This document shows positions 29,189 to 57,439 of a DNA stretch of 64,000 bases, in pieces. The translations under genes were made by a program, and so were the position numbers. Below the pieces are notes generated by a model. That model was given only the letters and a program-made list of their open reading frames with translations. It had not been told where the DNA came from and searched no databases. Source of the DNA: an uncultured bacterium (GTDB taxonomy: Bacteria > Krumholzibacteriota > Krumholzibacteriia > JACNKJ01); assembly GCA_963695095.1 (NCBI GenBank), contig CAVOFT010000001.1:3200001-3264000 (forward strand), given 5' to 3'. Numbering within the stretch: the stretch's first letter is position 1; every line of letters starts with the position of its first letter.

Positions 29189-29875
29189 CTAGTACAGGCT
29201 CTTGACCTGGCTCAGCGTCGCTTCCTCGGTAGCCGTGAAGCCGAGGGATTTGAACTGCTGGAGGCCGGTGCGGCCGTAGCCCACATCGCTGTCCCAGTAG
29301 CTCACGTACCAGCCGATGGTCTCCACGCCATTGTAGCTGATCTGGCCGCAGAGGCCGGCATTCTCGTAGCCCCAGGCCATCGACTGGCCGGCGGGCAGGA
29401 CCAGGCCCTCGCCGCTGATGTCGATGATGGAGTACACGGTCGGCGGCGAGGTGTCGATGACGCCCGCGGGATAGAAGGTCCCCACGCCGTCCCAGGCCCA
29501 GGTGTAGGGATTGGTGACGTTGTAGATGCTGGTCTGGTTCAGATCGACGTTCCACTCCACCGGCATGACGATGGGATCGCTGCTGTACTCGTTGGTGGGG
29601 AAGCCCAGCTCGACGAGGGTCTGGGGCTCGCCCGTGTTGTTCGTCCAGATGTGCAGCGTGTAGTAGGCCCAGCCAGAGGCCGAACCGTTGGTGGTCGCCG
29701 GCGTGTTCATGGCGCCGCCGGTGTTGTACATCACGTCAGTGCGATCGCCAATGGGCTGATCCACCGCGGTGCCGTTGGGGATGGTCACCACGGAGCCGTC
29801 CTTGGACGCCACGAGCGCAAAGGCCGGCGCGGCAATCGCCAGGATGGCGAAGGCAACGAATAGCTTTTTCAACAT
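29189..29875 (-). CDS. Secreted protein with short C-terminal tail ATEEATLSQVKSLY (paralog A)
   Basis: GGAGGAG RBS, signal MLKKLFVAFAILAIAAPAFA, aromatic-rich beta body. Confidence 0.85.
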   Translation of the reverse strand: MLKKLFVAFAILAIAAPAFALVASKDGSVVTIPNGTAVDQPIGDRTDVMYNTGGAMNTPATTNGSASGWAYYTLHIWTNNTGEPQTLVELGFPTNEYSSDPIVMPVEWNVDLNQTSIYNVTNPYTWAWDGVGTFYPAGVIDTSPPTVYSIIDISGEGLVLPAGQSMAWGYENAGLCGQISYNGVETIGWYVSYWDSDVGYGRTGLQQFKSLGFTATEEATLSQVKSLY

Positions 29876-30097
29876 GGTCTCCTCCAGGAGAAATTTGCTG
29901 TCAGTTCACAGACGTCCGTTGGTGCGTCCATCGGCCCTCGGAGGAGAGGATCCGCTGACGCACCGCTGGGCACAGTATAGCATAGCGGGTCCGGGCAATC
30001 TATAGAGGGTCTTGGGGGGCGGGCTTTCGGGGGAGGATTTCGGCCAAGCCAGGTTAGAATCGCGGGGTTGCCTGTATCAAGGGTGTATCAAAGCAGA

Positions 30098-30125
30098 GGA
30101 CCCCCGGCATGGGGCCGGGGGTCCA
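30098..30125 (-). terminator. Intrinsic terminator of paralog B
   Basis: GGACCCCCGGC...GCCGGGGGTCC, followed by TCTGCTTT on the minus strand. Confidence 0.6.
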
Positions 30126-30167
30126 GAAAGCGGCAAAAACTCCTGGAGGAAGAGCTTCAGCTAGGGA

Positions 30168-30857
30168 CTAGTAGAGGCTCTTGACCTGGCTCAGGGTGGC
30201 CTCCTCGGTGGCCGTCGTCAGGTAGTCGGCCGTGAACTGCTGCAGACCGGTGCGGCCGTAGGGCTCGTCGCTGTCCCAGAAGCTCACGTACCAGCCGATG
30301 GTCTCGACGCCATTGAAGGTGATCTGCCCGCAGAGGCCGGCATTCTCGTAGCCCCAGACCATGGAAGCGCCCGCGGGGAGCACCAGGTTGGCGGCGGAGA
30401 CGTCGACCACGCTGTACACGGTCGGCGGCGAGGTGTCGATGACGCCCGTGGGCGTGAAGGTGCCCACGCCGTCCCAGGCATGCGTGTAAGGATCCGCCAC
30501 GGAGTAGACGTCGTTGTTGTTCAGGTCGATGTTCCACTCAACGGGCATCACGATGGGGTCCGCGCTGTTCTCGTTGGTGGGGAAGCCCAGCTCGAGGAAC
30601 TCGATGTCCTGGGCGGCGCCGTTGGTGTAGACGTTCATGGTGTAGTAGGCCCAGCCGGAGGCATTGCCCGCGGTGGTTGCCGGGGTGAACATGGCGCCGC
30701 CCGTGTTGTACTCGACGTCCGCGCGGTCGCCCAGAGGCTGATCCACCGGGCTGCTGTTCGGAATGATGACCACTGAGCCGTCCTTCGACGCCACAAAGGC
30801 AAAGGCCGGCGCCGCGATCGCCAAGACGGCGAGCGCAACAACTAGCTTTCTCAGCAT
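30168..30857 (-). CDS. Secreted protein with short C-terminal tail ATEEATLSQVKSLY (paralog B)
   Basis: AAGGAGG RBS; colinear with paralog A (YNTGGAM, ELGFPTNE, WGYENAGLCGQI, YGRTGLQQF). Confidence 0.85.
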   Translation of the reverse strand: MLRKLVVALAVLAIAAPAFAFVASKDGSVVIIPNSSPVDQPLGDRADVEYNTGGAMFTPATTAGNASGWAYYTMNVYTNGAAQDIEFLELGFPTNENSADPIVMPVEWNIDLNNNDVYSVADPYTHAWDGVGTFTPTGVIDTSPPTVYSVVDVSAANLVLPAGASMVWGYENAGLCGQITFNGVETIGWYVSFWDSDEPYGRTGLQQFTADYLTTATEEATLSQVKSLY

Positions 30858-31330
30858 TGCGAGTCCTCCTTGAGGAACAGATGATGTCAAACCAAGGTGA
30901 AACGCACCCGAGTCAATCCAGAATCGGATCCCGAGAGCGAATCTCTCATGGCTCGGAGTCTAGCAGATGGGCGATTGTCATGTCTAGGTTACAGTTGTAA
31001 AGCCATGTAAATCAATCGGATCTGATCGATGGCCGAGGCAGGTCGGACGATGGGGCTCGCGTTTCGGCCGGGAAGCCGCCGCCCGCCAGGCCGGGGGCCA
31101 AGCGCTGACAACTAGGCTTGACGCATGGAAACAATCGGCGACAGCCCGTCCCGAGGCCCCGGCCGCGGCTCGACAGCGGTCCGCAATCGCTGCGTTTGCA
31201 ACAGGGTCGCCGGCCCGCTATTTTGGAGGCGGGCGGTTGCAATCCCGAGAACCCTGCGCTAGACTGCCCCGGTTTTCCGACTCCCCTCGCCCCACCAGCT
31301 GAGACCCTAGGGATGGCGGAGGTGCGCCCG

Positions 31331-32584
31331 ATGGCCGAATCCCGCATGCGGATAGCTATCCACAAGCAGGGGCAGGACTGCCAGGTCCGCGTCCGTGCCT
31401 TTTCCGGCAAGGAAGAGAAGCAGCTCCGGGCGAAGCTCAATCTTTGCCCCGCCGACGAGGCGCTGACGCGCATGGAGTCCTACGAGGATCTCCGTGCAGA
31501 CGAGTACTTCACGGTGAAGAGCGCCGGCGGCCCCGAGCTCTGCTTCGGCTGCCCGCCCGGACGCCTCGTGCGCCTGCGCGAGTTCCTCGACGAGACGCGT
31601 GGCGCCGCCGTGACCGACGGCGCCGAGCACGTGCCCAGCACCGAGGATGCGCGGCGTGCAGTCAGCCTCGAGGACAACTTCGCCGAAGAGCTCACGCACA
31701 TCATCGATTCCAATCTGCCCTTCTACAAGCGGGGCCCGGCGGCCTTCGCCAAGGGCGTGGGGATGCGCCTCGGCGTGCTGCTGCTGCTCGCCATCGTGGG
31801 GCGCGTCGTCTACCTCGGCCGCGCGGATCACTACGTCAGCCGCAGCCTGCAGAGCATCATGAAGACGGCGGAGACGCCCTATGCCGGCCAGAGCTATCTC
31901 TCCTACTTCTTCGAGCCCAACTACAGCCACCGCTCCAAGCTGATCATCAAGCGCCCCCTCTACATCCGCGGTAACCGGGTGATTCTCGAGGGCGGCTTCT
32001 ACGTGCAGATCGAGGGCATCGGCAACCTGAAGGCCTCCATCGAAGCCCACAACAACGAGCCCGTGACCCTGCGCGTGGACGCGCGGGAGGGCCGCATGCA
32101 GCTCGCCGGCATCTTCGTCGGCGGGGACCAGGTCGCCCCCAAGGGCGAGCTGCGTTACCAGGGCAAGGTGCCGGTGGCCGGCGCGGCGCCCAGCCGCGTC
32201 GACGCCCTCGACACCGACGCGCAGGGCGCCTACGTCCGCGTGCGCGACGCCGACCCCGAGGAGGACGGCACCTTCGGCTGGATGCTGGGACAGACGGTGA
32301 GCGTGACGGGGAACCTGACCAACGACGTCGACCGCTACCTGATCGGCACGGACGACTTCAAGTTCGCGATCGAGCGCAGCAGCGTGAAGCCGGAGATCCA
32401 GGAGATCCTCGACCTCGCCGCCGGCAGCAGCGAGCGCGCCATCGTCGACATGCGGCTCGCCAATCGGCCCTTCAATCTCATCGATCGGCGCAATCCGCGC
32501 GAGGGTCGGCGGGAGACGCGCATCATCTCGATGGGCACGGCCCACTACATCACCGTGCAGAGCGCGGTGCTGAAGAACATCTAG
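31331..32584 (+). CDS. Hypothetical single-pass membrane protein
   Basis: GGAGGT RBS; one TM (LGVLLLLAIVGRVVYL); strong GC3 bias; no recognised motif. Confidence 0.75.
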   Translation: MAESRMRIAIHKQGQDCQVRVRAFSGKEEKQLRAKLNLCPADEALTRMESYEDLRADEYFTVKSAGGPELCFGCPPGRLVRLREFLDETRGAAVTDGAEHVPSTEDARRAVSLEDNFAEELTHIIDSNLPFYKRGPAAFAKGVGMRLGVLLLLAIVGRVVYLGRADHYVSRSLQSIMKTAETPYAGQSYLSYFFEPNYSHRSKLIIKRPLYIRGNRVILEGGFYVQIEGIGNLKASIEAHNNEPVTLRVDAREGRMQLAGIFVGGDQVAPKGELRYQGKVPVAGAAPSRVDALDTDAQGAYVRVRDADPEEDGTFGWMLGQTVSVTGNLTNDVDRYLIGTDDFKFAIERSSVKPEIQEILDLAAGSSERAIVDMRLANRPFNLIDRRNPREGRRETRIISMGTAHYITVQSAVLKNI

Positions 32585-32590
32585 CGTGAA

Positions 32591-32654
32591 GCGGGCATGA
32601 GGGGCTCCCGCTCGCGCCGCTTCACAGGCGCTCGCAGAAGCCCCTCATGCCCGC
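32591..32654. repeat. Family-2 hairpin repeat (core GCGCC-TGTGAAGC-GGCGC), copy a
   Basis: Arms GCGGGCATGAGGGGCT / AGCCCCTCATGCCCGC; 7 nt after the stop. Confidence 0.9.
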
Positions 32655-32736
32655 CCCGCGCACGTTCCCCCATAGCACCGCGCTCTGCACGCATCCCTTG
32701 CGCTGGGGGCATTCACTTCGGCATGCTTTGCGGCGA

Positions 32737-32799: not shown

Positions 32800-32812
32800 C
32801 CGGAGGTCACGA

Positions 32813-40662: not shown

Positions 40663-41190
40663 ATGAAGCGCACGGCTATCATCCTCTTTGCCTTCTTCCT
40701 GTCGATCGCGATGGCCGGTTCCGCCTTCGCCTACCCCAGCTATTTCACGAACCGCTGTGCGAGCTGCCACAGCGACGACACGCCCACCTGCAACGGCTGC
40801 CATCAGCACCGCGGCAACGTGCAGGCCAGCCTGGACGCTGCCAGCTACCTGCCCGGCGCACCCGTGAGCGTCACCCTCACCGGGGGCGCCGAGGAGGGCT
40901 GGATCCGGGGCATCCTCTACGACCACAATGACGTCGTCGTCGCCCTGGCCACCGGGCCCACGGGCACGGGTGACGATGGCGGCGCCAGCGCCGTGGAGTT
41001 CCCGGTCGGCCTGCAGGCCAGCGCGCCGGCAAGCGCCGGCGACTATGCCTGGGAGGCGGCCTGGTTCGGAGGCGCCACGGCCGGCGGCGGCGCTCACGAG
41101 GAGCGGCGGCGGCCCCTGACGGTGCACGTGGAGGGCGTCAATACCGCGGTCGCCGGCGGAAGTTGGTCGGCCATCAAGCGCCTCTACTAG
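40663..41190 (+). CDS. Small secreted protein with two CXXCH motifs, Reeler/Ig-like domain and short C-terminal tail (TAVAGGSWSAIKRLY)
   Basis: Signal MKRTAIILFAFFLSIAMAGSAFA; CASCH and CNGCH motifs. Confidence 0.75.
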   Translation: MKRTAIILFAFFLSIAMAGSAFAYPSYFTNRCASCHSDDTPTCNGCHQHRGNVQASLDAASYLPGAPVSVTLTGGAEEGWIRGILYDHNDVVVALATGPTGTGDDGGASAVEFPVGLQASAPASAGDYAWEAAWFGGATAGGGAHEERRRPLTVHVEGVNTAVAGGSWSAIKRLY

Positions 41191-42153: not shown

Positions 42154-42218
42154 AGAGCGCGTGCGTGTCGCAGCCGGGCGCCTGTGAAGCGGCGCCCGGT
42201 GCGACACGCGAGCGCTCT
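42154..42218. repeat. Family-2 hairpin repeat, copy c
   Basis: AGAGCGC..GCGTGTCGCA / TGCGACACGC.AGCGCTCT arms; overlaps the stop codon. Confidence 0.88.
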
Positions 42219-45180
42219 ATTTGAGCAGGACCATGCGCTTGCTCACCGTCTGCTCCGTCGTCACGAGACGATAGAAGTAGACGCCGCTCGCGGCGCGCTG
42301 GCCTGCGCTATCCGTGCCGTCCCAGACGATGCTCTGCGGACCGGCCTCGAGCTTGCCCTCCGCCAGGCTCTTCACCAGGCGACCCTGGGCATCGAAGATG
42401 CGCAGGCTGGCCTGGCCGGCCTGCTTCAGGCTGAAGCGGATCTCCGTCTTCGGGTTGAAGGGGTTGGGGCTGTTCTGGTCCAGGCGCGTGACGAAGTGCG
42501 TGCTCACGCCCTCGTCCACGCCCGAGAGATCGAAGCTGCCCATGAGCAGGAAGTCGTCCACCAGCGCCTCCACCAGGGAGCCGCTGCCGGCATCCTCCGC
42601 CTTGAAGCGCAACTGCACCGTGCCCGGGGTGGCGTAGTAGGTGTCCAGATCGAAGACGATGTTCACCCAGGCATTGCTGCTGGCCGTCGTGTACTCGACG
42701 TTGGTCCAGGTAGCGCCGCCGTCGTTGCTGACCTGCACGGTCCAGTAGTCCTCGCCGGGGGCGTTGCCCTGGTCGTTCGAGTACCAGCGCCAGTAGCTCA
42801 CGGAGACATCCGAAGCGCCAGCCAGCTCGAACTTCGGCGAGTAGAGCAAGGTCGCGCCGCCGTCGACGTCGTAGCTGCCGGCGCCGGTGCCTGCCAGCGC
42901 GCCGGTCACCCAGCACAGCGTGCCGATCGCCGTATGGTCGTTTTCAGGCTGGGCGGTCGTCTGCTGCGGATCCGCGCGCTCCCAGTTGCCGGTGCCGGCG
43001 GTCTCGCCGGTCACGGTGCTGAGATGCCAGGCGGTCGGCAGCTCCATCTCGTCCGCGAAGCCGTCGTCGACCTCGAAGTAGTGCAGGGCCGCCGGCGCCG
43101 CCGCCGGGCTGGTGCCCGTCGCACCCAGGGTGTTGGCCGCCTCGATGTAGTACTCGACCTTGCTGCCCCAGGCCTGCGCCGGGATCGTGGCCGCGAACTC
43201 GTCGGGGTTGCCGGTGCCGTTCATGAGCACGGTGCTGAAGCCGCCGCCGTTCACGCGATAGTTCAGCTCCACGCTGCCGCCCACGATGCTGCCGCCGCCC
43301 AGGGACACGGCCTGGCCGATCACGGGATAGCCCACGCTCTGGCTGGACGAGTAGGGACGGGACTCGTGGTAGACGAAGACGCCGACCAGGATCGCGGGAC
43401 AATCGAAGCCGTGGTTCTCGGCCGCCTCGCAGAGCTGCGCATGGTGCGGCGTGCCGTCGTCCATGTTGGCGTTGTCGTCATCGGCGAAGAAGGTGGCGAA
43501 CACCTGATCCGCCTGGTAGAAGGGGTGCATGAGCACGCGGCCGTAGTGCCAGAGCTCTCCGCTCTTGACCGTGCCGGGCGCATCCCAGCTGCCGCCGCCG
43601 TAGAGGCCCTGCAGCAGCACCATCGCGTCCCAGTTGAAGCCGGCGATCACCTGGCCGGCGTAGTGGATCTCCTGGCCCACCACGTCGCCCGGGTACTGCA
43701 AGGTGTTCAGCGAGTTGCGAATCCCGCTCACGCAGTTGCCCACGTAGAAGCCGCGGCCGATGATCGGATCCTGGGTCATCAGGTTGCCGATGATGTCGCC
43801 GTTGCCCTCGCCCAGGCCCTCGTTGCCCTGGCTGCCGAGAATGGCGGCCTGGATGCCGTGGCCGAACTCGTGGTGCACGACCTGCTGCAGCTCGCCGGTG
43901 TTGCCGTAGCTGGCGCTGCCGGCGCAGAAGTTGATGGTGCCGTCCCACCAGGCGTTGCCCGGGCAGTAGCCGTCCGAGCGGTTCACGTAGGCGTTGATGT
44001 GCGCGTTGCGTGTAGCCGAAGCCCGGCGTCGAAGAGATCGAAGAAGTCGTGGATGTCGTTGATGGCATCGAAGACGTCGCGCTCGTCCTGGCGGGCGTTC
44101 GCGTCCGTGAAGGCCACGGTGAAGGGCACGTTCTCCTGCGCCGTGCCGCGAGAACGCCGCCTCGGCGCCGTTGTAGTTGAACACCGTGATGTAGGGACCG
44201 ATCAGGCCGGCCGTCACCGTGCGGTTCCCGCCCGTGCCGGCGATCGACCAGCTGCCGTCGGCGAGGCTATTGGTGCTGCCCACGCCGCTCACGTTGATCG
44301 TGAGGTAGGGAATGTCGGTCATCGTCGAGCCGTCGCAGTAGCCGTAGATCTGGGCCTCCGCGGAGGTGTCGCCCCCATAGGCGAAGTCGATGTTGTTGAT
44401 CCGCTGCAGGATGTCGCCGCTGTGGGCGTCCACATCCGTCACCCACTCGCCGAAGGGCTCATAGGTCTTCACCGACAGGCGCCAGACGAGGTGGTACTCG
44501 ACCTCGGTCTCGCTGAGCGCCACGGGCAGCACGAGCAACCGCGGTTTCTCGGTGACGCTGTCCGTTGCCGGATCGAAGGGCAGGGCCTGGATGGCGATGG
44601 CCTCGGCCGCCGCCGCGCCGAGCGCGGGGGTTGTCGACAGGCCGCTGATCTGATGGTAGTCCGAACCCATCAGGAGCAGCTTGCCCGTGTCGCTGAAGGC
44701 CACGCGCACCTGCGCGCCCTCGACGTCCACGCCGGCATAGGTCTGCTGGAAGTGGGCCACCCACTTGCCCAGGGCGTGCGGGGTGGAGTCCAGGCGGAGC
44801 TGGCTGCCCTCCGCGCGCAGCACGTCGGCGTTGGCGGCGATGACCTGGCGGGCCAGGCTCTCCAGGCTCGCCGGGCCGCTGATGCCGCTCGCCATCGGCA
44901 CGCTGGTGCCGAAGACGTGCCGGGGCGTGTCGCTCAGGTTGTTCCAGGCGTAGACGCTCCAGCGACCCCCGTAGCGGGCCTCCAGGGTCTGGGCGGTCTC
45001 GAGCATGCCGACATCGCGGCCATAGCTCTGGGCGACGAGGGTGTTGAACGCCGGTAGCCGGATCTCATAGAGATCGTTCTGGCTGACCGGGGTGAAGGCC
45101 AAGGCGCTGACGGCCGCGAGCAAGAGACTTGCTGCGACGAGCAGGGCCCAGCCGGGGGTCCCGAAGATCCGAGATCTCAT
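42217..45180 (-). CDS. Secreted M4/M36-like zinc metallopeptidase (FTP/PepSY propeptide) with FlgD-Ig CTD, paralog 1; local compensated frameshifts about 44010-44150
   Basis: HFQQTYAGVDV, VDAHSGDIL, HHEFGHG, GLGEGNGD, QNSPNPFNPKT...KRMVLLK. Confidence 0.88.
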   Translation of the reverse strand: MRSRIFGTPGWALLVAASLLLAAVSALAFTPVSQNDLYEIRLPAFNTLVAQSYGRDVGMLETAQTLEARYGGRWSVYAWNNLSDTPRHVFGTSVPMASGISGPASLESLARQVIAANADVLRAEGSQLRLDSTPHALGKWVAHFQQTYAGVDVEGAQVRVAFSDTGKLLLMGSDYHQISGLSTTPALGAAAAEAIAIQALPFDPATDSVTEKPRLLVLPVALSETEVEYHLVWRLSVKTYEPFGEWVTDVDAHSGDILQRINNIDFAYGGDTSAEAQIYGYCDGSTMTDIPYLTINVSGVGSTNSLADGSWSIAGTGGNRTVTAGLIGPYITVFNYNGAEAAFSRHGAGERALHRGLHGRERPPGRARRLRCHQRHPRLLRSLRRRASATRNAHINAYVNRSDGYCPGNAWWDGTINFCAGSASYGNTGELQQVVHHEFGHGIQAAILGSQGNEGLGEGNGDIIGNLMTQDPIIGRGFYVGNCVSGIRNSLNTLQYPGDVVGQEIHYAGQVIAGFNWDAMVLLQGLYGGGSWDAPGTVKSGELWHYGRVLMHPFYQADQVFATFFADDDNANMDDGTPHHAQLCEAAENHGFDCPAILVGVFVYHESRPYSSSQSVGYPVIGQAVSLGGGSIVGGSVELNYRVNGGGFSTVLMNGTGNPDEFAATIPAQAWGSKVEYYIEAANTLGATGTSPAAAPAALHYFEVDDGFADEMELPTAWHLSTVTGETAGTGNWERADPQQTTAQPENDHTAIGTLCWVTGALAGTGAGSYDVDGGATLLYSPKFELAGASDVSVSYWRWYSNDQGNAPGEDYWTVQVSNDGGATWTNVEYTTASSNAWVNIVFDLDTYYATPGTVQLRFKAEDAGSGSLVEALVDDFLLMGSFDLSGVDEGVSTHFVTRLDQNSPNPFNPKTEIRFSLKQAGQASLRIFDAQGRLVKSLAEGKLEAGPQSIVWDGTDSAGQRAASGVYFYRLVTTEQTVSKRMVLLK

Positions 45181-45447
45181 GGGTTGCACTCCTTCGCTGA
45201 GTTGCCGTCTAGACGGTGGGCGTCGAAGGCAGGCGAAAACCTGACCTGCGTTGTGGGGCACGAGAAGGCGGGAAGCACTTCATTATAGCATACTTGGAAT
45301 GCAGCCGACAAAGAGGCAAAGCAACGCCCACGCGGGAAACTCGAGCCCACCCGCCCCCGGGGGCGGCCTCAGGTCGCGGGATGGGGCCTGCTACCGCATC
45401 GTAGAGCTGCGGCGGGCCGCTCGCGAGGCGCTTGTTCCCAAGCGGAA

Positions 45448-45512
45448 AGCCGCTGCGCGGGTCGTGGCCGGGCGCCTGTGAAGCGGCGCCAGGCACGACC
45501 CGCGCGGCGGCT
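45448..45512. repeat. Family-2 hairpin repeat, copy d
   Basis: AGCCGCTGCGCGGGTCGTG / CACGACCCGCGCGGCGGCT arms; overlaps the stop codon. Confidence 0.9.
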
Positions 45513-48432
45513 ACTTGATCAGAAGCATGCGCTTCGCCTGCGTCCCCGCGGCCGTCTCCAGGCGGTAAAGGTAGACGCCGCTGGCCACTGCGCGGCCCTC
45601 GCCGTCCCGCCCGTCCCAGCTCACGCTGCCCGGCCCGGCCGGCTGCTCGCCCGCGAAGAGCACCCTGAGCAGGCGGCCCCGGGCATCGTAGACCGCCAGA
45701 CGCGCCCGCCCGGCGCTGGGCAGGCTGTACTTGATCTCCGTCACCGGATTGAAGGGATTGGGCCGGTTCTGCTCGAGCCGCTGCGGGAAGGCGATCTCCA
45801 GGCCGTCGCCCACGCCGGTCAGGTCCTCGAAGCTGGCGAGGATGGCGATGTCGTCCACGGCCGCCTCCACCTCGTTCACGGCGCCGAAGTCCTCGGCCGT
45901 GATCTTCAGGCGCAGCAGCTCCAGCGCGGGGAAGTGGGCGCTGAGATCGTGAATCACGTTCTCCCAGCCCGGAGTGCCGCTGGGATCGTGCTCCACGCGC
46001 AGCCAGGTGGCGCCGCCGTCGTTGGAGAGCCAGAGATCGAACTCGTCGTTCGTGCTGTCGGTGACGAACCACTTCCAGTAGCGCAGCGAGGCGCTGGTCG
46101 CGCCCGTGAGATCGTAGACCGGCGAGAGCAGCGTGGTGCGGCCGTTGTCGACGTCGTTCGTCTGGCCGGTCACCCAGCAGAGCGTGCCCGCCGGCGTGTG
46201 GTCGTCCTCGGGCTGGATGTTGGTGCCGATGGGATCCACGTGCACCCAGGCGCTGCTGGCCGCGGCGGCATCGGTGCCGTCGGGGTCCACGGTCCAGCCG
46301 TCGGCGGACTCGAGCGGATCGATGAGCCAGGCCACCACGAAGCTGTGGAAGGCCGCCGGCGCATCGTCCGGCTCGCTGCCCGGCGTGCCCAGCTCGTCGG
46401 CGGCGCTCAGGTAGTAGTCGACCTGGGCCGCTTCCTGGGCCGGAATGCTCGCGCTGTAACTGTTGCCGCCCGCCGGCGCCATCGTCAGCTCGGTCCAGGT
46501 GCCGCCGTCCACGCGCCAGGTAAGTGTCACCGACGCAGGATTGATGGGTGCGTAGGTGGAGATGACCTCGGCCGTCACCGCATAGTCGTTCTCCGCGTCC
46601 GTCGTGTCCCCCACCGGGGTATGCGTGAAGAGCACGCCGATCAAGCGCTCGGGGCACTCGAAGCCGTGGTTCTCGGCCGCGGCGCAGAAGCTGTCGAAGT
46701 GCGGCGTGCCGTCGTCCATGTTGTCGTTGTCGTCATCAGCGAAGAAGGTGGCGAAGACCTGATCGGGCTGCGTGGTCGGCAGCAGAAGCAGGCGCCCGAA
46801 GTGCCAGCGCTCGGCCGAAGCGATGGTGCCGGGGCTGTCCCAGGCGGCGCCGCCGCCGAGTTCGGCCTGCAGCAGCACCATGGCGTCCCAGTTGAAGCCG
46901 GCGATCACACGGCCGGCGGCGTGGATCTCCACGCCCAGCACGTCGGCCGGGTACTGCAGGGTGTTCAGCGAATTGCGGATGCCGCTCACGCAGTTGCCCG
47001 CGAAGAAGCCGCGGCCGATCACCGGATCCTGGGTGATCAGGTTGCCGAGGATGTCCCCGTTGCCCTCGCCCAGGCCCTGATCGCCCTGGTAGCCGAGAAT
47101 CGCCGCCTGCACGCCGTGGCCGAACTCGTGGTGCACCACCTGCTGCAGCTCGCCGGTGTTGGCGTAGCCGGCGCCGGCGGCGCAGAAGTTGATGGTGCCG
47201 TCCCACCAGGCGTTGCCAGGACAGTAGCCGTCGGTGCGATTCACGTAGGCGTTCATGCGCACGTTCGGATAGGCGAAGCCGGGGTCGAAGAGCGCGAAGA
47301 AGTCGTGGACGTCGTTCACGGCGTCGAAGGTGTCGCGCTCGTCCTGGCGCGCATTCGAGTCGTCGAAGCGCACGGTGAAGGGCAGGTCCTCCATGGCCAG
47401 GCCGCTGAAGGCGGCCTCGTCGCCGTTCTGATTGTAGACGCGCACCCAGGGGCCGAAGAGATCGGAAGTCACCGTGCGCGCGCCGCCGCTGCCCGCCACG
47501 CTCCAGTCGCCGGCCGCGTTGCTCGTCGTGCTCCCGGCGCCGTCGACGCTGATGCGCAGGTAGGGCATGGGCACATCGCTCGGCCCGTCGCACCAGCCGT
47601 AGACCTGGGTGTCGGCCGCAGTGTCGCCGCCGTAGGCGAAGTGGATGTCGTTCGTTCGCTGCAGGATCTCGCCCGTGTGGGCGTCGACGTCCGTCACCCA
47701 GGCGCCCAGGGGCTGCGCGGTGCGCAGGGTCAGCCGCCAGACGAGGTGGTACTCCACCGCGGTGTCGCTGAGTGCCACGGGCAGCACGAGCAGGCGCGGC
47801 TGGGCGCTGACGCTGTCCGTCGTCGGGTCGAAGGGCAGGGCCGCCTTGGCGATGGCCTCCGCCGCCGCCGCGCCGAGGGCCGGCGTCGGCGAGAGCGCAA
47901 TGTCCGCATGGTAGTCCGAACCCATCAGGAGCAGCTTGCCCGTGTCGCTGATCGCCACGCGCACGCGGGCGCCCTCGACGTCGATGCCCTGCCAGGTCTG
48001 CTGGAAGTGGGCCACCCACTTGCCCAGCGCATGCGGCGTGGCGGCGAGGCGGAGCTGCGCGTTGTCCGCGCGGAGCAGCTCCGCGTTGGTCGCGATCACC
48101 TGGCGCGCGAGGCTCTCCAGCGCCGCCGCGTCGTCGACGCTCGCCGCCAGCTGCACGCTGCTGCCGTAGACATGCCGCGGCGTTCCGCTCAGGTTGTTCC
48201 AGGCGTAGACGCTCCAGCGGCCGCCGTAACGGGTCTCGAGCGCCCGCGCGGTCTCGAGGATGCCGACGTCGCGTCCGTAGCTCTGCCCGCCCAGGGTGTC
48301 GTACTCGGGCAAGCGGATCTCGTAGAGCGCGTTCTGATCCGCGGGCGTGAAGGCGCCGGCCGGCGCGAGGAAGGTGGCGAGCAGCAGGCCGAGAATGCCC
48401 AGCGCGGCTGCGAACTTCAGGATGCCCGTCAT
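45511..48432 (-). CDS. Secreted M4/M36-like zinc metallopeptidase with FlgD-Ig CTD, paralog 2
   Basis: HHEFGHG, GLGEGNGD, QNRPNPFNPVT...KRMLLIK. Confidence 0.9.
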   Translation of the reverse strand: MTGILKFAAALGILGLLLATFLAPAGAFTPADQNALYEIRLPEYDTLGGQSYGRDVGILETARALETRYGGRWSVYAWNNLSGTPRHVYGSSVQLAASVDDAAALESLARQVIATNAELLRADNAQLRLAATPHALGKWVAHFQQTWQGIDVEGARVRVAISDTGKLLLMGSDYHADIALSPTPALGAAAAEAIAKAALPFDPTTDSVSAQPRLLVLPVALSDTAVEYHLVWRLTLRTAQPLGAWVTDVDAHTGEILQRTNDIHFAYGGDTAADTQVYGWCDGPSDVPMPYLRISVDGAGSTTSNAAGDWSVAGSGGARTVTSDLFGPWVRVYNQNGDEAAFSGLAMEDLPFTVRFDDSNARQDERDTFDAVNDVHDFFALFDPGFAYPNVRMNAYVNRTDGYCPGNAWWDGTINFCAAGAGYANTGELQQVVHHEFGHGVQAAILGYQGDQGLGEGNGDILGNLITQDPVIGRGFFAGNCVSGIRNSLNTLQYPADVLGVEIHAAGRVIAGFNWDAMVLLQAELGGGAAWDSPGTIASAERWHFGRLLLLPTTQPDQVFATFFADDDNDNMDDGTPHFDSFCAAAENHGFECPERLIGVLFTHTPVGDTTDAENDYAVTAEVISTYAPINPASVTLTWRVDGGTWTELTMAPAGGNSYSASIPAQEAAQVDYYLSAADELGTPGSEPDDAPAAFHSFVVAWLIDPLESADGWTVDPDGTDAAAASSAWVHVDPIGTNIQPEDDHTPAGTLCWVTGQTNDVDNGRTTLLSPVYDLTGATSASLRYWKWFVTDSTNDEFDLWLSNDGGATWLRVEHDPSGTPGWENVIHDLSAHFPALELLRLKITAEDFGAVNEVEAAVDDIAILASFEDLTGVGDGLEIAFPQRLEQNRPNPFNPVTEIKYSLPSAGRARLAVYDARGRLLRVLFAGEQPAGPGSVSWDGRDGEGRAVASGVYLYRLETAAGTQAKRMLLIK

Positions 48433-48535
48433 GCGATCACTCCCTTGGATGAATGCGCGCGCCGACGATCAGCGCGCGTCGATGCCAAGAACCGAGCCGC
48501 CGGGGCGCAGGCGAGGCGCCGGCTCCTCGGCGGGG

Positions 48536-48600
48536 AGCCGCTGCAGGGGTCGTGGCCGGGCGCCTGTGAAGCGGCGCCAGGCACGACCCCTGCAGCGGCT
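48536..48600. repeat. Family-2 hairpin repeat, copy e
   Basis: AGCCGCTGCAGGGGTCGTG / CACGACCCCTGCAGCGGCT arms; overlaps the stop codon. Confidence 0.9.
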
Positions 48601-51523
48601 ACTTGATGAGCAGCATGCGCTTCGCCTGCGCCCCCGCGGCCGTCTCCAGGCGGCAGAAGTAGACGCCGCTGGCCACCGGGCGGCCGGCGCCGTCCCGCCC
48701 GTCCCACTGCAGCCGGTGCTGGCCCGCGGCGTAATCGCCCGCGGCCAGCTCGCGCAGGCGGCGGCCCTGGGCATCGAGCACTTCCACGCGCACCCGGCCG
48801 GCAGTGGCCAGGCTGAAGCGGATCTCGGTGACCGGGTTGAAAGGATTGGGCACGTTCTGCTCGAGCAGCGTGGGCAGCCCGATCTCGAAGTCCTCGCCGA
48901 CGCCGGTGGTCTCCCAGATGGCGAGCAGCGTGACATCGTCCAGGCCGCCTTCGACCAGATGGTCCGCGTCGATGTCGTAGACCTCCCAGCGGAAGGCCAT
49001 CTGATCGGGGACGGGGAACAGGCCCAGCATGTTCACCGTGAAGGGCACCCAGGCGTTGGACGGCGTGCCGCTGAACTCCATCGTGTACCAGGTGCTGCCG
49101 CCATCGTTGGAGGTCTTCGTCTTCCAGTAGTCCGTGCTGCCCGCGGCGCCCTGGTCGTTGGAGAACCACTTCCAGTAACGCAGGGTGACCGTCGAGGCGC
49201 CGCTCAGGTCGTAGACCGGGCTGGTCAGCGTGACCCAGCCGCCATCCACGTCGTCGGCGTCCACCGGCTGGCCGGCCGTGTGCTGGCCGGTGATCCAGCA
49301 GGAGTTGCCCAGCAGCGAGTGGTCGTGCTCGGGCTGCGCGATCGTGCCCACGGGATCCACCCGCGTCCAGCCGCCGGCGGGATCGGCGCCGCCGGAGATG
49401 GCCGTCGTCCAGCCCGCGCCCGACTCGCCATCCGCGAGCCGCCAGGCCACCATGAAGTCATGGGGCCCGGCCGGGCCGGTGCGCGGCTCCATCGCCGAGG
49501 CGCCGGTGATGTCCTCGGCGCTGAGGTAGTACTCGACGATCCCGGGCTGCTGCGCGGGCATCAGGCCCTGGTAGGAGTCGCCGAGGCCGGTGGGCAGCAT
49601 CGCCGCGCTCTGCCAGGCCTCGCCCACGCGACGCCAGTAGAGCCGCACGCCGTCGGCGGCGATGAGCCCGTTGCTGGAGGTCGCGATGGCCGTCACCGCA
49701 ATCGGGTTGGGAGAGGTCTCGCGGTCCGGCAAGGGCGTGTGGCCGATCGCCACGCCCGTCTCGATGAGGTCGCAGGCAAAGCCGTGATTCAGCGCGGCGG
49801 CGCAGTAGGCGAAGTAGTCCGGGGTGCCGTTGGCGAGGTCGCCGTCGTCGTCATCGGCGAGGAAGGTGGCGAAGGCCTGATCGGGTTGCAGGGTCGGGTG
49901 CATGAGGACGCGGCCGTAGTGCCAGGTGCCGGCCGCCCGCAGGGTGCCCTCGGCCACACCGTGGACCTCCTGGAGCACGACCATGGCATCCCAGTGGAAG
50001 CCTGCGATCACCCGCCCCGCGTTGTGGATCTCCTGGCCGACGACATGATCCGGGTAGACCAGGTTGTTGTCCGAGTTGCGGATGCCCGTCGCGCAACTGC
50101 TCGTGTAGAAGCCGCGGCCGATGATCGACTCCTGCGTGATCATGTTCGCGAGCACGTCCCCGTTGCCCTCGCCCAGGCCCTCGTTGCCCTGCCAGCCGAG
50201 AATGGCCGCCTGCACGCCGTGGCCGTACTCGTGCTGCACGACGCCCTGGATCTCGCCCGTGTTGGCGTAGTTGCCCGAGGCGGCGCAGAAGTTGATGCTG
50301 CCGTTCCACCAGGCGTTGCCCGGGCAGTAGCCGTCCGTGCGGCTGACGTAGCCGTTGATGCTGCCGTTCGCATACGCGAACTCGGGCGCGAAGCTCTGGA
50401 AGAAGAGGTGGATGTCGTTCACCGCATCGAAGACGTCCCGCTCGTCGGCCTGGGAGTTGGCATCCGTGAAGGCCACCGTGAGCGGCGCGCCGTCGGCCAC
50501 CGAGCCGCTGAAGAAGGCCTCGGCGCCGCCGAGATTGTCGGCGACGTGGATGTAGGGACCCTGCAGGTCGCAGCTCGCGGTGCGGGGCAGGCCGCTGCCG
50601 GCGATGCTCCAGTCGCCCGCGGCGTCGCTCGTCGTGCTGCCCAGCCCGCTGACGTCGACGCTGAGGTAGGGCATGGGCGCGATCACCTCGCCGTCGCACC
50701 AGGTGACGGGCTGGGTGCCGCTGGCCGTGTCGCCGCCGTAGGCGAAGTGGATGTCGTTGTAGCGCCACAGCAGCCGGCCGTCCCGAGCGTCCACATGCGT
50801 GACCCAGAGGCCCAGCGGGTCCTCCGTGCGCAGGCTGAGCCGCCAGGCCAGGCGCAGATCGGCGCCGCCCGCCGCGCGAGGCAGGGGCAGCACCATCAGC
50901 TCGGGCGCGCCCTCGAGCACGGAGGCCGCCGGCAGGGCGGCGGCCGCGATGGCCAGGGCCTCGGTCGCAGCGAGCGCGGGCGTCGGATCGAGCGCGATGT
51001 CGCTGAAGAGGTCCGAGCTCGCGAACATCAGGCGGCCGTCGTCGGCAAAGCCGAGCCGCGCCCGGGCCTCCCAGATCTCGAGTCCCTGCCAGGTCTGCTG
51101 GAAGTGGGCCACCCACTTGCCGCGGGCGTGGGGCGCCGCACTGAGGACGAGGCCCTCCAGGTCGCCGGGGAAGAGCTCGGGCAGCGCGGCCATGGCCTGC
51201 CGTGCGAGGCGCTCGAGGCCGGCGGCGTCGCCGGGCGCCTCGCCGAGGGCAAAGCTCGGCCCGTGCACGAGGTGCGCGCTGCCCGACACGCGGTTCCAGG
51301 CGCTGACGCGCCAGGGCAGGCCCAGGCGGGCCTGCAGGCGCTGCTCGGTTTCGCGGGCGGCGATCTCCGTGGCGTAGTCGCCGGTCAGCATGGCCTCGCC
51401 GAGGCCGAGCGGGATCTCGAGCGCCTGCTGCGGAACGGGCTGGAAGGCGAAGGCCAGGGTCGGCAGGGCGAGGAGACAGCAAGCAATGCGCAGCACGAGC
51501 GCGCGGGGGGCGGCCAGGGTCAT
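48599..51523 (-). CDS. Secreted M4/M36-like zinc metallopeptidase with FlgD-Ig CTD, paralog 3
   Basis: QHEYGHG, GLGEGNGD, QNVPNPFNPVT...KRMLLIK. Confidence 0.9.
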   Translation of the reverse strand: MTLAAPRALVLRIACCLLALPTLAFAFQPVPQQALEIPLGLGEAMLTGDYATEIAARETEQRLQARLGLPWRVSAWNRVSGSAHLVHGPSFALGEAPGDAAGLERLARQAMAALPELFPGDLEGLVLSAAPHARGKWVAHFQQTWQGLEIWEARARLGFADDGRLMFASSDLFSDIALDPTPALAATEALAIAAAALPAASVLEGAPELMVLPLPRAAGGADLRLAWRLSLRTEDPLGLWVTHVDARDGRLLWRYNDIHFAYGGDTASGTQPVTWCDGEVIAPMPYLSVDVSGLGSTTSDAAGDWSIAGSGLPRTASCDLQGPYIHVADNLGGAEAFFSGSVADGAPLTVAFTDANSQADERDVFDAVNDIHLFFQSFAPEFAYANGSINGYVSRTDGYCPGNAWWNGSINFCAASGNYANTGEIQGVVQHEYGHGVQAAILGWQGNEGLGEGNGDVLANMITQESIIGRGFYTSSCATGIRNSDNNLVYPDHVVGQEIHNAGRVIAGFHWDAMVVLQEVHGVAEGTLRAAGTWHYGRVLMHPTLQPDQAFATFLADDDDGDLANGTPDYFAYCAAALNHGFACDLIETGVAIGHTPLPDRETSPNPIAVTAIATSSNGLIAADGVRLYWRRVGEAWQSAAMLPTGLGDSYQGLMPAQQPGIVEYYLSAEDITGASAMEPRTGPAGPHDFMVAWRLADGESGAGWTTAISGGADPAGGWTRVDPVGTIAQPEHDHSLLGNSCWITGQHTAGQPVDADDVDGGWVTLTSPVYDLSGASTVTLRYWKWFSNDQGAAGSTDYWKTKTSNDGGSTWYTMEFSGTPSNAWVPFTVNMLGLFPVPDQMAFRWEVYDIDADHLVEGGLDDVTLLAIWETTGVGEDFEIGLPTLLEQNVPNPFNPVTEIRFSLATAGRVRVEVLDAQGRRLRELAAGDYAAGQHRLQWDGRDGAGRPVASGVYFCRLETAAGAQAKRMLLIK

Positions 51524-51800: not shown

Positions 51801-51807
51801 TGGAGGT

Positions 51808-52458: not shown

Positions 52459-52481
52459 CGCTTGCTCCTTTGCAGCCTGGG

Positions 52482-54122: not shown

Positions 54123-54281
54123 GGGGCTCCTTTCCAATGCGGGAGGCGCCGCCGTTTCCCGCGGCACCCTGTCGGCCTCAGGCCCTTTGCCGCGCGGCGG
54201 CAGGCAGGCCCTTCGGCTCGGAACCTACCCCAGGATAGTGTGGGAGGAAACCGAGGTCAATCCCCGCGTCGGCGCCAGGAA

Positions 54282-54566
54282 TCAGTGCCAGTGACCGGGC
54301 AGCCAGATCCAGCCCCGCGGGCGCTTCATCCAGTGGCCGTCCTCCCACTCCGCCCCCGGGGGCGCCGGGAGCCAGCGCCCCTCGATCCAGGCGTAGCGGC
54401 GGCCCGTCCATTCCCAGTGGCCCGGCAGCCAGCGGTACCCGGGGTCGGGTGGCGGCGGCGGCACTTCCACGACAAGGGGCGGCGGCGGGCTGGGCTGCAG
54501 GGTCTGGCGAGCGCAGCCGCCCGCCGCCAGGGCCGCGAGGAGCGAAAGCAGGGCGGCGACTCTCAA
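54282..54566 (-). CDS. Small lipoprotein with YXWGXW (WXXGXW) repeats
   Basis: TTG start with GGAGG RBS; lipobox AAGG-C; WLPGHW, WIEGRW, WEDGHW, WLPGHW. Confidence 0.85.
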   Translation of the reverse strand: MRVAALLSLLAALAAGGCARQTLQPSPPPPLVVEVPPPPPDPGYRWLPGHWEWTGRRYAWIEGRWLPAPPGAEWEDGHWMKRPRGWIWLPGHWH

Positions 54567-54583
54567 GCGTCCTCCAGGCGGCC

Positions 54584-55774
54584 TCAGATGGGGAGCCGGC
54601 GCCAGCCGGCCGGCAGGTCCAGCTGCTCGGCGCCGACGAAGCCCGCCAGATCCCGCAGGGACTCGGCCAGGCCCGCCTCGAGCAGTGGATCCCGGCGCAC
54701 GGCGGGCTCCAGATGGATGGCGTTGATCCGCAAGCGCCCGGCCTGCCGGTCCAGGCGCGGGTCGAGCCGGCCGACCAGCCGCCCCTCGTGCAGGATGGGC
54801 AGCACGTAGTAGCCGAAGCGGCGCTTGGCCTCCGGCGTGTAGATCTCGATGCGGTAGCGGAAGTCCAGCAGCTCCTCGGCCCGGCGCCGCTGCCAGAGCA
54901 GCGAATCGAAGGGGCAGATGAGGTGGGTGCCGCGCGGGGCGGGCAGGTCGAGACCGCCGTCCAGATGCTCGGGCAGGGCATAGGCCGGCTCGCCCAGGCC
55001 CGGCACCTGCACCGCCACGATGCGCTTGGCGCGCAGCAGGCGCGCGAGCACGGCCGGGCGCAGGGCGGGGGCGAGGCGCGGCGCGGTCATGTAGTTGTCC
55101 AGGTGCCGCAGCGTGGCCACACCGTTGCCGGCCAGGCCGACGAGGACCCAGCTGTCCTCGTAGGCGCGGCGGCTGGCCGTGGGCCCGGGCGGGTAGACGC
55201 GCTCGGCCAGGTCGTAGACGCGGCGGAAGTGCCGCCGCTCCCGCACGGCGAGCTGTCCCTGGCGCCACAGCAGCTCCAGGGCCATCTTCGCCTCCTTCCA
55301 GCCCCACCAGCCACCGCTCCCCCCTTTGCCGTCGCCCTCGAAGTCAGCGCTCTCCAGGGGACCCTCGTCGCGAATGCGCCGCAAGACGCGCCGCTTCACC
55401 GCCAGCGGCGACTGCATGCTCGCCCACCACTTGCCGCTAGGATCCCAGTCGCGCATGTACCGCCGGCTCAGGGCCAGACTGCCGGCTGGGAGGATGCTCG
55501 CCTCGTGGCCCCAGAACTCGTAGGCCAGCTTCTCCTTGTAGACCCAGCGGTCGAGCGCGGCCGGCGCATAGGTGCCGTAGCGGCTCCAGAGGGTGAGCAG
55601 GTGAGCGCGGGCCAGGGCGTTGACGCTGTCGAGCTGCAGAGCCCCGCAGCGCTCGAGGTGATCGAGAAACTGCGCGCGAGTGAGCCGCCGGCCGCGCGGG
55701 CCGAGGAGTCCCTGGCGGGCAAGCCAGAGGCGGATCATCTGTTCGCGCTCGATGCGGGGCAGCGGCTTGGGCAT
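54584..55774 (-). CDS. ycaQ: YcaQ/AlkZ family (HTH_42) crosslink-repair DNA glycosylase
   Basis: LQLDSVNAL.RAH...WSR, EFWGHEAS, ICPFDSL, YRIEIYTP..KRRFGYYVLPIL. Confidence 0.88.
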   Translation of the reverse strand: MPKPLPRIEREQMIRLWLARQGLLGPRGRRLTRAQFLDHLERCGALQLDSVNALARAHLLTLWSRYGTYAPAALDRWVYKEKLAYEFWGHEASILPAGSLALSRRYMRDWDPSGKWWASMQSPLAVKRRVLRRIRDEGPLESADFEGDGKGGSGGWWGWKEAKMALELLWRQGQLAVRERRHFRRVYDLAERVYPPGPTASRRAYEDSWVLVGLAGNGVATLRHLDNYMTAPRLAPALRPAVLARLLRAKRIVAVQVPGLGEPAYALPEHLDGGLDLPAPRGTHLICPFDSLLWQRRRAEELLDFRYRIEIYTPEAKRRFGYYVLPILHEGRLVGRLDPRLDRQAGRLRINAIHLEPAVRRDPLLEAGLAESLRDLAGFVGAEQLDLPAGWRRLPI

Positions 55775-55849
55775 TGGCCGAAGCTAGCAGCTCGGGGACC
55801 GCGCGGGAAAGAGCTTCAGCGAGCGGCGCGGCCGGGCTACGCTGGGGGC

Positions 55850-56587
55850 ATGGACATCTACGGCCGCCTGGCCCCCCACTACGATCAGCTCTTTCCCGTG
55901 AGCGAGATGCAGGCCGCCTTCCTGCGCGCTCGGCTTGCGGCGGCCGGCGCGCGCCTCGTGCTGGACGCGGGCTGCGGCACGGGCCGCCACCTGGAGCTCT
56001 TGCGCGACTGGGGACTCGCCGCGGCGGGCCTGGAGCCCGATCCCGCCATGGCCGCGCTCGCTCGCAAACGCCTGGGCGCCGGCACGCCGGTGGCCGTGGT
56101 CGGCCTCGAGGCCGCTGCCGCTGCGCTGAAGGGCCCCTTCGAAGCCGCGCTCTGCCTGGGCAATACGCTGGCCCATCTCGTGGCGCCGGGTGCGCTCGCG
56201 GCTGGGCTGGCCGGCCTGGCCGCGCTGCTCGCGCCGGGCGGGCTGCTGATCACCCAGACGGTGAACTTCGACCGCGTGCTCGCTGCCGGTCGCGCCGATT
56301 TCCCCGAGCGGCAGATCCCGGACGGCAGGGGCGGCACCTTGCTCTTCCGCCGCGACTATGACTTCGCCGCGGCGCCCGCGCAGCTGGGCTTTCGGCTCTC
56401 GCTCACCGGGCCGGGGCTGGCGCTCGCCGATACGATTCCCCTGCTGCCCCTGGTCCGCGCCGAGCAGGAGGCCGCGCTCGTCGCCGCCGGCTTCGCTCCG
56501 GGCGAGGCCTGCGGGGACTGGGACGGCTGCCCCTGGCGGCCGGACTCCCCGGCCACGATCCTCAGCGCTCGGCATCGAGAAGAATAG
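55850..56587 (+). CDS. Class I SAM-dependent methyltransferase
   Basis: VLDAGCGTG, CLGNTLAHL, LAPGGLLI. Confidence 0.9.
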   Translation: MDIYGRLAPHYDQLFPVSEMQAAFLRARLAAAGARLVLDAGCGTGRHLELLRDWGLAAAGLEPDPAMAALARKRLGAGTPVAVVGLEAAAAALKGPFEAALCLGNTLAHLVAPGALAAGLAGLAALLAPGGLLITQTVNFDRVLAAGRADFPERQIPDGRGGTLLFRRDYDFAAAPAQLGFRLSLTGPGLALADTIPLLPLVRAEQEAALVAAGFAPGEACGDWDGCPWRPDSPATILSARHREE

Positions 56588-56731
56588 AGCTGGGCGGCCT
56601 GCGATCCCCCTTGCAGCGCGATCAGATTTAGCCTAAAATTGTCCGCTATACCGCGTATTCGGTGCCGGATGTCTGGTATCGAGGCGGGCCTGCGCCATCC
56701 AAAAGCACCCTAACCAACTGAGGCTACAGCC

Positions 56732-57439
56732 ATGTTCGCGATCAAGCATCGTGTGCGTCGCCTTCTCCCCTCGCTCTTCACCTTGTCGCTGGGACTGCTC
56801 TGGCTTGGCGATGCCAGCGCCGCCGAGCTGATCACCCTGCGCAGCGGCAACGCCCTGCCCGGCAATCCGGATCCGCAGATCAGCCTGCTCCTGGGCACCG
56901 GCGGCGCGGCCCTCTCGGCCAATCCCTTCACGTCGGCGGATTTCGCCGCCGCCTGCGGCCCCCGCAGCGCCGTCGTCATCACGACGCCCATCGGTCCCTG
57001 GCTCCAGCAGCTCGCCTGCGACCCGCTGGCCAGGTGGGTCGGCACCGATGCCCTCGCCACGCCGGCCTCGGGCCTCTACTGCCAGAACTTCGACGTGGAG
57101 ACCTGCTGCATCGAGTCGGCCGTGCTGAGCTTCTGCTTCTCCACGGACGACGCGCTGGGCGACGGCATCTATGGCGGGCCCAACCTCGACGGCGTCTACC
57201 TCAATGGTGTTGCCGTGACGCCGAGCATCAACACCGGCAGCTACGCCACCGAGACCCAGGTCGGGCCCGTTGACGTGACCGGCCTCATCGCTTGCGGCAG
57301 CAACCAGCTGCAGGTCTACAACCGCGACGCGGCCCTCGTCGTCAGCGGCGTCATCTACAGCGCCACGATCGACATCACCGAGTGCGCGGTGCCCACCGAG
57401 GACAGCAGCTTCGGCAGCGTCAAGTCGCTGTACCGCTAG
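56732..57439 (+). CDS. Secreted Cys-rich beta protein with short C-terminal tail (VPTEDSSFGSVKSLYR)
   Basis: Signal peptide; mature AELITLRSGN; tail shared with three other proteins in the window. Confidence 0.8.
   Translation: MFAIKHRVRRLLPSLFTLSLGLLWLGDASAAELITLRSGNALPGNPDPQISLLLGTGGAALSANPFTSADFAAACGPRSAVVITTPIGPWLQQLACDPLARWVGTDALATPASGLYCQNFDVETCCIESAVLSFCFSTDDALGDGIYGGPNLDGVYLNGVAVTPSINTGSYATETQVGPVDVTGLIACGSNQLQVYNRDAALVVSGVIYSATIDITECAVPTEDSSFGSVKSLYR

Follow-up and report, generated by a model that had tools for sequence, protein, structure and literature searches.

Four exported proteins encoded in the window, the 64,000-nucleotide stretch analyzed here (positions 3,200,001 to 3,264,000 of contig CAVOFT010000001.1, from an uncultured member of the Krumholzibacteriota), end in a common tail of about 17 residues. 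The tail consists of a linker, [V/I/T]-small-[T/V/N]-E, followed by a nine-residue helix, [ST]-W-G-x-[IV]-K-x-L-Y, which shows alpha periodicity and is amphipathic (moment of 1.21 at 100 degrees versus 0.41 at 170 degrees). It was undescribed in the sources we searched, and it is best read as a sorting signal of the T9SS (type IX secretion system) or sortase kind with a candidate enzyme, a second paralogue of the sortase PorU that we term PorU-T. On balance, we lean towards the tail being a second, peptide-sized signal of a stripped-down T9SS for small cargo, which would be cut and anchored by PorU-T and perhaps carried by the PorV paralogue V10.

The four proteins and their tails, the latter located with a tail matrix, are:

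29189..29875, minus strand: exported protein of 228 amino acids (aa) without known family (translation, Pfam/NCBIfam scan), tail at its end
29192..29239, minus strand: tail FTATEEATLSQVKSLY, linker T-A-T-E plus amphipathic helix, Lys invariant
30168..30857, minus strand: tandem paralogue of the 29189..29875 protein (BLAST), 229 aa, tail at its end
30171..30218, minus strand: tail TTATEEATLSQVKSLY
40663..41190, plus strand: exported protein of 175 aa with two CxxCH motifs, likely a dihaem cytochrome c (choice-of-anchor V match weak, below cut-off), tail at its end
41140..41187, plus strand: tail NTAVAGGSWSAIKRLY
56732..57439, plus strand: Cys-rich exported protein of 235 aa without known family (Pfam/NCBIfam scan), tail at its end
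57386..57436, plus strand: tail AVPTEDSSFGSVKSLYR

An earlier note on this DNA had reported these tails ahead of four stop codons, and all four were recovered there; by heuristics, every one of the proteins carries a signal peptide at its N-terminus and none has a transmembrane (TM) helix. The note's count of three families was correct, since the first two genes are paralogues and the other two were singletons in an all-against-all BLAST comparison. None of the four proteins matched a sorting family in Pfam or NCBIfam; the window proteins with a T9SS-type C-terminal domain (CTD) do match TIGR04183/PF13860. As a separate observation, the tag on the 40663-41190 (+) product may sort a c-type cytochrome, a candidate surface electron-transfer protein.

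The tail is a portable C-terminal tag

Named homologues of a conserved gene assign the phylum to Ca. Krumholzibacteriota. The genome examined (3.64 Mb, 93.5% complete; 2,865 genes by our own caller) was scanned with a position-blind regular expression, which gave 57 terminal and 4 internal matches among the called genes, far in excess of chance. A matrix derived from those 57 matches, and hence partly circular as a census, placed 59 of 62 matches of at least 20 bits within 6 residues of the stop, terminal windows making up 1.6%. In this genome 69 tail open reading frames (ORFs) lay above the working threshold. Signal peptides were identified in 57 of 61 called tail genes and in 864 of 2,646 other genes (54 of 61 versus 841 with a narrower start window), using a crude rule applied identically to all genes. 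The 63 tail bodies longer than 100 aa formed 39 BLAST families; Pfam matches were obtained for 11 of 39 scanned bodies (beta-helix, lamin-tail, PD40, MAM-like, PPC and DUF7901). When 44 tails alone were compared with NCBIfam no model matched, and TIGR04183, PF18962 and PF13860 were also unmatched. The 85 genes adjoining tail genes in this genome revealed no recurring neighbour family.

As an independent check, we also searched a protein database with a profile of the tail, with figures taken from the best 120 of 555 matches (lengths of 75-2,000 aa searched). Among these, the best match lay at most 2 residues from the C-terminus in 117 of 120, a signal peptide was present in 97 of 108 Met-starting proteins, 117 bodies formed 41 families, and the longest tail protein was 413 aa. 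Names among the matches to the profile included Krumholzibacteria, Eisenbacteria and Latescibacteria. The profile scan of this genome and its relatives that the earlier note had proposed detected the tail in 146 of 151 genomes of the phylum (E 0.001) and variant tails in the remaining five, with [V/I/T]-[A/P/G/D]-[T/V/A/N]-E as the phylum-wide linker. With 39 families, 59/62 terminal matches and 57/61 genes encoding a signal peptide, the tail extends well beyond a few paralogs; its position is mainly terminal, as 59/62 and 117/120 matches attest, although a strictly C-terminal position does not hold for the internal and N-terminal copies described below. A subclade of family f4 (L208, L210, L281, L282, L292 and L304) carries a variant, S-[FLM]-D-x-[VIL]-K-x-[LM]-Y-R, with Asp in place of Gly, a difference that can help in mapping which residues of the tail's reader co-evolve with it.

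An Atlas search with the tail alone as query gave matches that were all below 0.9. Full-text literature searching, which covered listings and abstract openings with subscription papers largely outside, found no paper on the tail or PorU-T. Similar tails presumably occur in Poribacteria.

The tail is exchanged with the T9SS-type CTD

The genome contains 174 terminal CTD matches. None of its ORFs has both tail and CTD, and no tail was seen directly ahead of a CTD. A CTD-bearing homologue was found for 21 of 63 tail bodies. In beta-helix paralogues the tag switches right after C-x-x-T-[GA]-V-E, with alignments that reach the tag; CVLTGVE is followed by the tail in one beta-helix gene and by a CTD in another. 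The domain of about 145 aa encoded beside PorU-T (see below) is found in single copy with the tail and repeated in large ORFs, one of them CTD-terminated. The lack of dual carriers and the swap at the beta-helix junction bear out the proposal that unrelated exported proteins share a movable tag at the C-terminus, exchangeable with the FlgD-Ig/T9SS-type CTD. The two groups differ in size, with a median of 224 aa and a maximum of 460 aa for tail proteins versus a median of 667 aa for CTD proteins; only 4 of 61 tail proteins exceeded 400 aa, compared with 96 of 118 CTD passengers.

The CTD genes of the window used for comparison are:

1995..12124: three CTD genes with stops at 5636 (+), 7244 (-) and 12124 (+), linkers including GTDVP and GSAVE
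18363..21485, minus strand: C25 peptidase whose FlgD-Ig/T9SS type A CTD has the linker GTAAD; distinct from the candidate tail enzyme
42217..51523, minus strand: three tandem M36/M4-like metallopeptidases of ~970-1010 aa with CTD, linkers LSGVD, LTGVG and TTGVG
57489..59552, minus strand: CTD-bearing beta-helix protein

All six CTD linkers cited in the earlier note are thus present. The metallopeptidase paralogues at 42217..51523 (-) also have an FTP propeptide.

From the likeness of these linkers to the start of the tail, a single processing site had been suggested for both tags, a suggestion that holds in part. The linker pattern occurs in this genome ahead of 76 of 131 CTDs, where 12.1 would be expected, and ahead of 34 of 69 tails. 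The f1 tail linker is similar to the published PorU site, PT/GI with a small residue at +1 (PMC11969387), and a PorU-type cleavage motif is present ahead of the tail in f1 but differs in f4, f7 and phylum-wide. Tail linkers read V-[SADPG]-N-E in f4 and T-D-x-E in f7, versus S/T-[AG]-V-[ED] ahead of the CTDs of both. Tail and CTD linkers co-vary in f1, partly in f7 and not in f4; the f4 and f7 tail sets contain shadow-ORF false positives and the f1 match is confounded by GC content (70%). Because the linkers differ and a second PorU paralogue is tied to the tail genes, a pair of related sites, each with its own reader from a pair of related enzymes, fits better, and separate enzymes for tail and CTD are the likelier arrangement.

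PorU-T is genetically linked to tail genes

PorU-T was found by listing the C25 peptidases of 13 genomes, in which one paralogue per genome adjoins tail genes. In this genome both copies lie elsewhere:

C1:2524937-2529050, outside the window: PorU-T
near C1:1281414: second PorU-T copy, frameshifted, without tail neighbours

PorU-T, a full-length paralogue, was detected in 150 of 151 genomes of the phylum, mostly in single copy. It matches PF01364, in 14 of 14 sequences its intact His-Cys pair aligned with that of PorU, its best PDB sequence match is PorU, and its fold is gingipain-like. Comparison with PorU by HHalign gave 99.7% over 449 columns for the N-terminal region and 99.8% over 124 columns for the C-terminal CTD. 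PorU-T nevertheless forms a clade separate from PorU, with roughly 25% identity, and was absent from the NF033707 matches at E 1e-15 (51 of 130 candidates scored), canonical PorU alone being over the cut-off in this genome. Of the 55 metagenome PorU-T loci taken forward (of 63), all that translated cleanly fell within the clades of the phylum. A Kgp-style cut after the invariant tail Lys was considered and not supported; the position aligned with Kgp D516, for which an S1 role is described (PMC6426963), is Asn in both PorU-T and PorU, in a weak stretch of the alignment.

The common gene order is an X-module/dockerin-like protein, 1-5 tail genes, PorU-T and often murQ. Same-strand tail genes were identified upstream of PorU-T in 11 of 13 discovery genomes. 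In 50 held-out genomes, which had not been used for discovery and were chosen for long contigs from nine families, the profile identified them in 45, and two more had a variant S-F-D-x-V-K tail (47/50). Metagenome PorU-T loci with enough flank gave 27 of 34 by profile plus 4 with variant tails (31/34), 8 of the 63 loci having been left out as partial matches. As controls, tail genes were found at 0 of 9 canonical PorU genes, and the background in this genome was 8 of 158 for CTD genes and 1 of 11 for the other C25 loci. The conserved core substrates of the operon would be the 1-5 tandem proteins with the ~145-aa domain.

This linkage, together with the likeness to PorU, makes PorU-T the best candidate for the reader of the tail. 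The earlier note knew of no identified machinery; a candidate enzyme linked to tail genes can now be proposed, and it is still true that literature searching found no paper on it.

Host T9SS components and a possible route

SprA, PorV and PorU are all present in the host, with PorU and PorV in tandem, and SprA was detected in 150 of 151 genomes of the phylum. PorV-family matches numbered 7-13 per genome in 10 of 10 genomes. Searches run without a positive control found GldM in 0 of 10, GldN in 0 of 5 and PorP in 0 of 5 genomes, and the phylum seems to run SprA without the known motor. Most PorV paralogues adjoin a CTD partner, in an order conserved across f1, f5 and f7. V10 is an orphan, with no CTD or tail neighbour at 34 loci; it has a PorV-like fold, 59 of 61 genomes have one intact copy of it, and it is a candidate carrier of the tail. 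A complex prediction of V10 with the tail scored 0.00 twice, with the controls not folded, and is evidence for neither side.

Several further observations concern these components. Each PorV paralogue except V10 stands beside its own atypical-CTD partner (L016-L020, L115-L134), and the operons of two such pairs include ExbB/ExbD/TonB, which might stand in for the undetected GldLM motor. At L017:1969-7890 (-), four genes conserved after PorU-PorV-M6-like in several families had no Pfam or NCBIfam match; three of them end like outer-membrane barrels, and these are further candidate T9SS parts. An orthologue of PorU2 (NF052324) was sought and dismissed, as no match exceeded the cut-off in 5 genomes.

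Building on the T9SS carrier model (PMC10994853) and the PorU transpeptidase model (PMC5445135), we infer the export route, carrier, cleavage and acceptor of the tail proteins as follows. The signal peptide would direct export by Sec, with folding in the periplasm. A carrier, for which V10 is the candidate, would capture the helix, and the outer membrane would be crossed via SprA. PorU-T would itself be exported and held by its own PorU-like CTD; it would cut the linker and attach the C-terminus so formed to an acceptor on the surface, in the way that PorU uses A-LPS. Labour would be divided such that large multidomain cargo uses the CTD, PorV and PorU, and small single-domain cargo uses the tail and PorU-T. 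The tandem ~145-aa domain proteins would probably display the dockerin-bearing partner of their operon.

A number of results weigh against this route. Tail copies were also found internally and N-terminally. PorV is described as binding a beta-sandwich, unlike a 9-residue helix (PMC10994853), and no full-length PorZ was found in 5 genomes, the matches being to the CTD part only and in 2 of 5. The linkers of tail and CTD are alike in this genome, so canonical PorU could equally read both, and PorU is reportedly of low specificity (PMC5445135). All three held-out genomes without linkage belong to family f2, which has tails and PorU-T yet showed no linkage (0 of 3 held-out genomes and G110). After single-linkage clustering, 115 of 118 tail neighbours of PorU-T formed one diverged family (clusters of 87, 26, 2 and 1 after removal of the signal peptide); the linkage may therefore reflect the neighbour family and not the tail, and it represents one inherited operon, not many independent recruitments. 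Nearly every genome of the phylum has the tail, SprA, PorU, PorU-T and V10, so that presence and absence cannot discriminate among them. The phylogenetic profile recommended by the earlier note accordingly showed co-occurrence of the tail with SprA (150/151), PorU and PorV and offered no discrimination within the phylum. A scan of named genomes for SprA gave two close relatives. In this assembly a frameshift divides V10, and V10-like barrels were also named from KSB1, Cloacimonetes and Fidelibacterota; V10 could instead be a housekeeping barrel of the PorQ kind. Frameshifts occur fairly often in the assembly, in which 2 of 52 orthologues tested were split and CTD fragments are many, such that broken genes need caution. 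One low-depth contig of a relative spans the V10 frameshift and differs in net length by a number not divisible by three, which is too weak to use. Among the sequencing runs listed for the V10 region, shares were small and no RNA run appeared. As a side observation on f2 (L173, L192-L194, L244 and L245), PorU-T still lies beside murQ where seen.

Alternative explanations

A different reading, unlikely but the strongest of the alternatives, is that the tail is an uncleaved docking peptide whose helix binds a surface or periplasmic scaffold non-covalently, for example the ~145-aa domain of the operon, with another component of the operon as the target of PorU-T. The dockerin helix, which binds cohesin, offers a comparison. 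Copies away from the C-terminus suit such a role: SnoaL-like lipoproteins have two tandem domains with a tail behind each, two proteins (C1:501400-501900 (-) and P0143) have it immediately after the signal peptide with the domain following, and two mini-proteins consist of signal peptide, short spacer and tail (C1:736712-736906 (-) and C1:2770432-2770680 (+)). The lipoproteins bearing the tail and the amphipathic moment of its helix are also consistent with docking, as is the X-module/dockerin-like protein of the operon, with helices patterned like that of the tail. The gene for this protein was present at 37 of 50 held-out PorU-T loci; its product gave PDB profile matches to 2b59_B and 4wi0_B and has visible repeats of the calcium-loop/helix type, with profile matches to dockerins (EF-hand proteins score equally) and no Pfam match. 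However, the tail has a conserved linker at fixed spacing, which in this genome corresponds to the cleavage linker of the CTD, and a pure docking peptide would not need one. The domain-tail-domain-tail proteins would also be explained by polyprotein cleavage, and the mini-proteins are possibly decoys, regulators or remnants. The proposed identity of the operon domain as a cohesin was not supported by any profile match to PF00963 or solved cohesins, a comparison that a remote cohesin fold could escape.

Some of these proteins have other features. The SnoaL/NTF2-like lipoproteins form a cluster at C1:2926429-2929891, some in domain-tail-domain-tail arrangement, upstream of a gingipain-like C25 gene, and also include proteins P0124, P0130 and P0176. 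In the mini-protein at C1:736712-736906 (-), Arg replaces the tail Lys. A large frameshifted region at C1:3378326-3387298 (-) has at least 7 operon-domain repeats plus CTDs and is scaffoldin-like.

It is quite improbable, in our estimate, that the tail is a minimal CTD handled by canonical PorV and PorU with PorU-T as a mere neighbour. Paralogues with either tag share an identical junction, T-[AG]-[VTA] is common to the linkers of 32 of 65 tails and 67 of 126 CTDs in this genome, and CTDs of 40-51 aa are functional in Prevotella intermedia (PMC11969387). On the other side, the linkers of f4 and f7 diverge and the f1 match may partly reflect the 70% GC, CTD motifs B and D and any beta-strand pattern are missing from the tail, and tail genes track PorU-T, not PorU. 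The basic residue separates the two as well: the tail position was Lys in 217 of 221 operon-family proteins chosen by their bodies and Arg in none (the other four have no tail), compared with 99 Lys and 41 Arg at the CTD position.

A more speculative possibility, to which we give little credence, is that PorU-T builds a coat or fibre, acting as a transpeptidase that cuts a tagged protein at its linker and attaches it to the strictly conserved tail Lys of a second one, or else to the tandem proteins of the operon. Such a role would fit the occurrence of Lys alone at its position, core substrates that are paralogous and in tandem, and the internal copies. About 2% of the genome's genes would then encode exchangeable parts of a surface layer held together by covalent cross-links, the equivalent in a diderm of the pili that sortases assemble, with export via motor-less SprA and V10.

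The least probable reading has the tail unconnected with crossing of the outer membrane, as a periplasmic retention, chaperone-binding or degradation tag: the undetected GldM, GldN and PorP (no positive control) leave T9SS export energy unexplained, and a 2014 study of Poribacteria single-cell genomes found no Por structural genes (PMC3909097), but in paralogous families the tail takes the place of a T9SS-type CTD at one and the same junction, and it shows linkage to a PorU paralogue with its own CTD.

Relation to known systems

The T9SS type A CTD (TIGR04183, PF18962; FlgD_ig PF13860 here; PorV, PorU) resembles the tail: in both, a signal peptide is combined with a C-terminal signal on unrelated passengers, the linker has small and acidic residues, a conserved Lys lies near the end, SprA, PorU and PorV are in the same genomes, and paralogues exchange one for the other. 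The CTD differs in length (70-100 residues, 40-51 in the shortest described, versus ~17) and is a beta-sandwich with motifs B, D and E (PMC11969387), whereas the tail is helical and has neither B nor D. The tail also differs in that its Lys is not replaceable by Arg, its cargo does not exceed ~460 aa, and it is linked to the second PorU paralogue. Like PorU (NF033707, PDB 6ZA2), PorU-T has a long N-terminal region, a C25 His-Cys domain and an Ig/CTD end; PorU has GHG and C-[NST], while PorU-T has Q-[GSA]-H-[AM]-N, G-C-H and an invariant Glu, lacks an adjacent PorV gene and is placed behind tail genes. T9SS type B (SprB/SprF, PorP) offers a precedent in which a different signal uses a different carrier barrel with the same SprA, a logic followed by the PorV-partner pairs here; its signals are folded domains anchored by the carrier, and PorP was unmatched in 5 genomes (no positive control).

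The LPXTG, PEP-CTERM, GlyGly-CTERM and MYXO-CTERM systems are alike in having a short portable C-terminal tag, many copies per genome and a dedicated endopeptidase or transpeptidase gene beside substrates. Tripartite signals are defined as including a TM helix and then a basic cluster (10.1101/2023.06.07.544157). The tail has neither and has no NCBIfam match, in agreement with the earlier note, which had set it apart from PEP-CTERM and LPXTG, and its candidate enzyme, as a soluble C25 peptidase, is neither an intramembrane protease nor a class A sortase. Cellulosomes, with X-module/dockerin proteins and cohesin scaffoldins, are matched by an operon that pairs an X-dockerin-like protein with small surface-sorted domain proteins; they differ in that the partner here is unmatched by cohesin models, the host is diderm, and anchoring would be by the tail and not by SLH domains or sortase.

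All the descriptions of T9SS signals that we found concern folded beta domains. If confirmed, a helical tag of 17 residues served by a PorU paralogue of its own would constitute a new signal class, and we found no earlier case of two sortases splitting cargo by size; it would also explain the destination of 60-70 otherwise unannotated proteins per genome. The orphan motif becomes directly testable, with one enzyme, one peptide substrate and one candidate carrier, and a tag this short would be useful for surface display or protein ligation.

Other genes of the window

A further pair of genes lies at 12374-15408 (-). The product of 13951-15408 (-) has CxxCH-type motifs and is likely a multihaem cytochrome. 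It is followed by a secreted protein, 12374-14446 (-), with an end like an outer-membrane barrel, and the two together are a possible porin-cytochrome pair.

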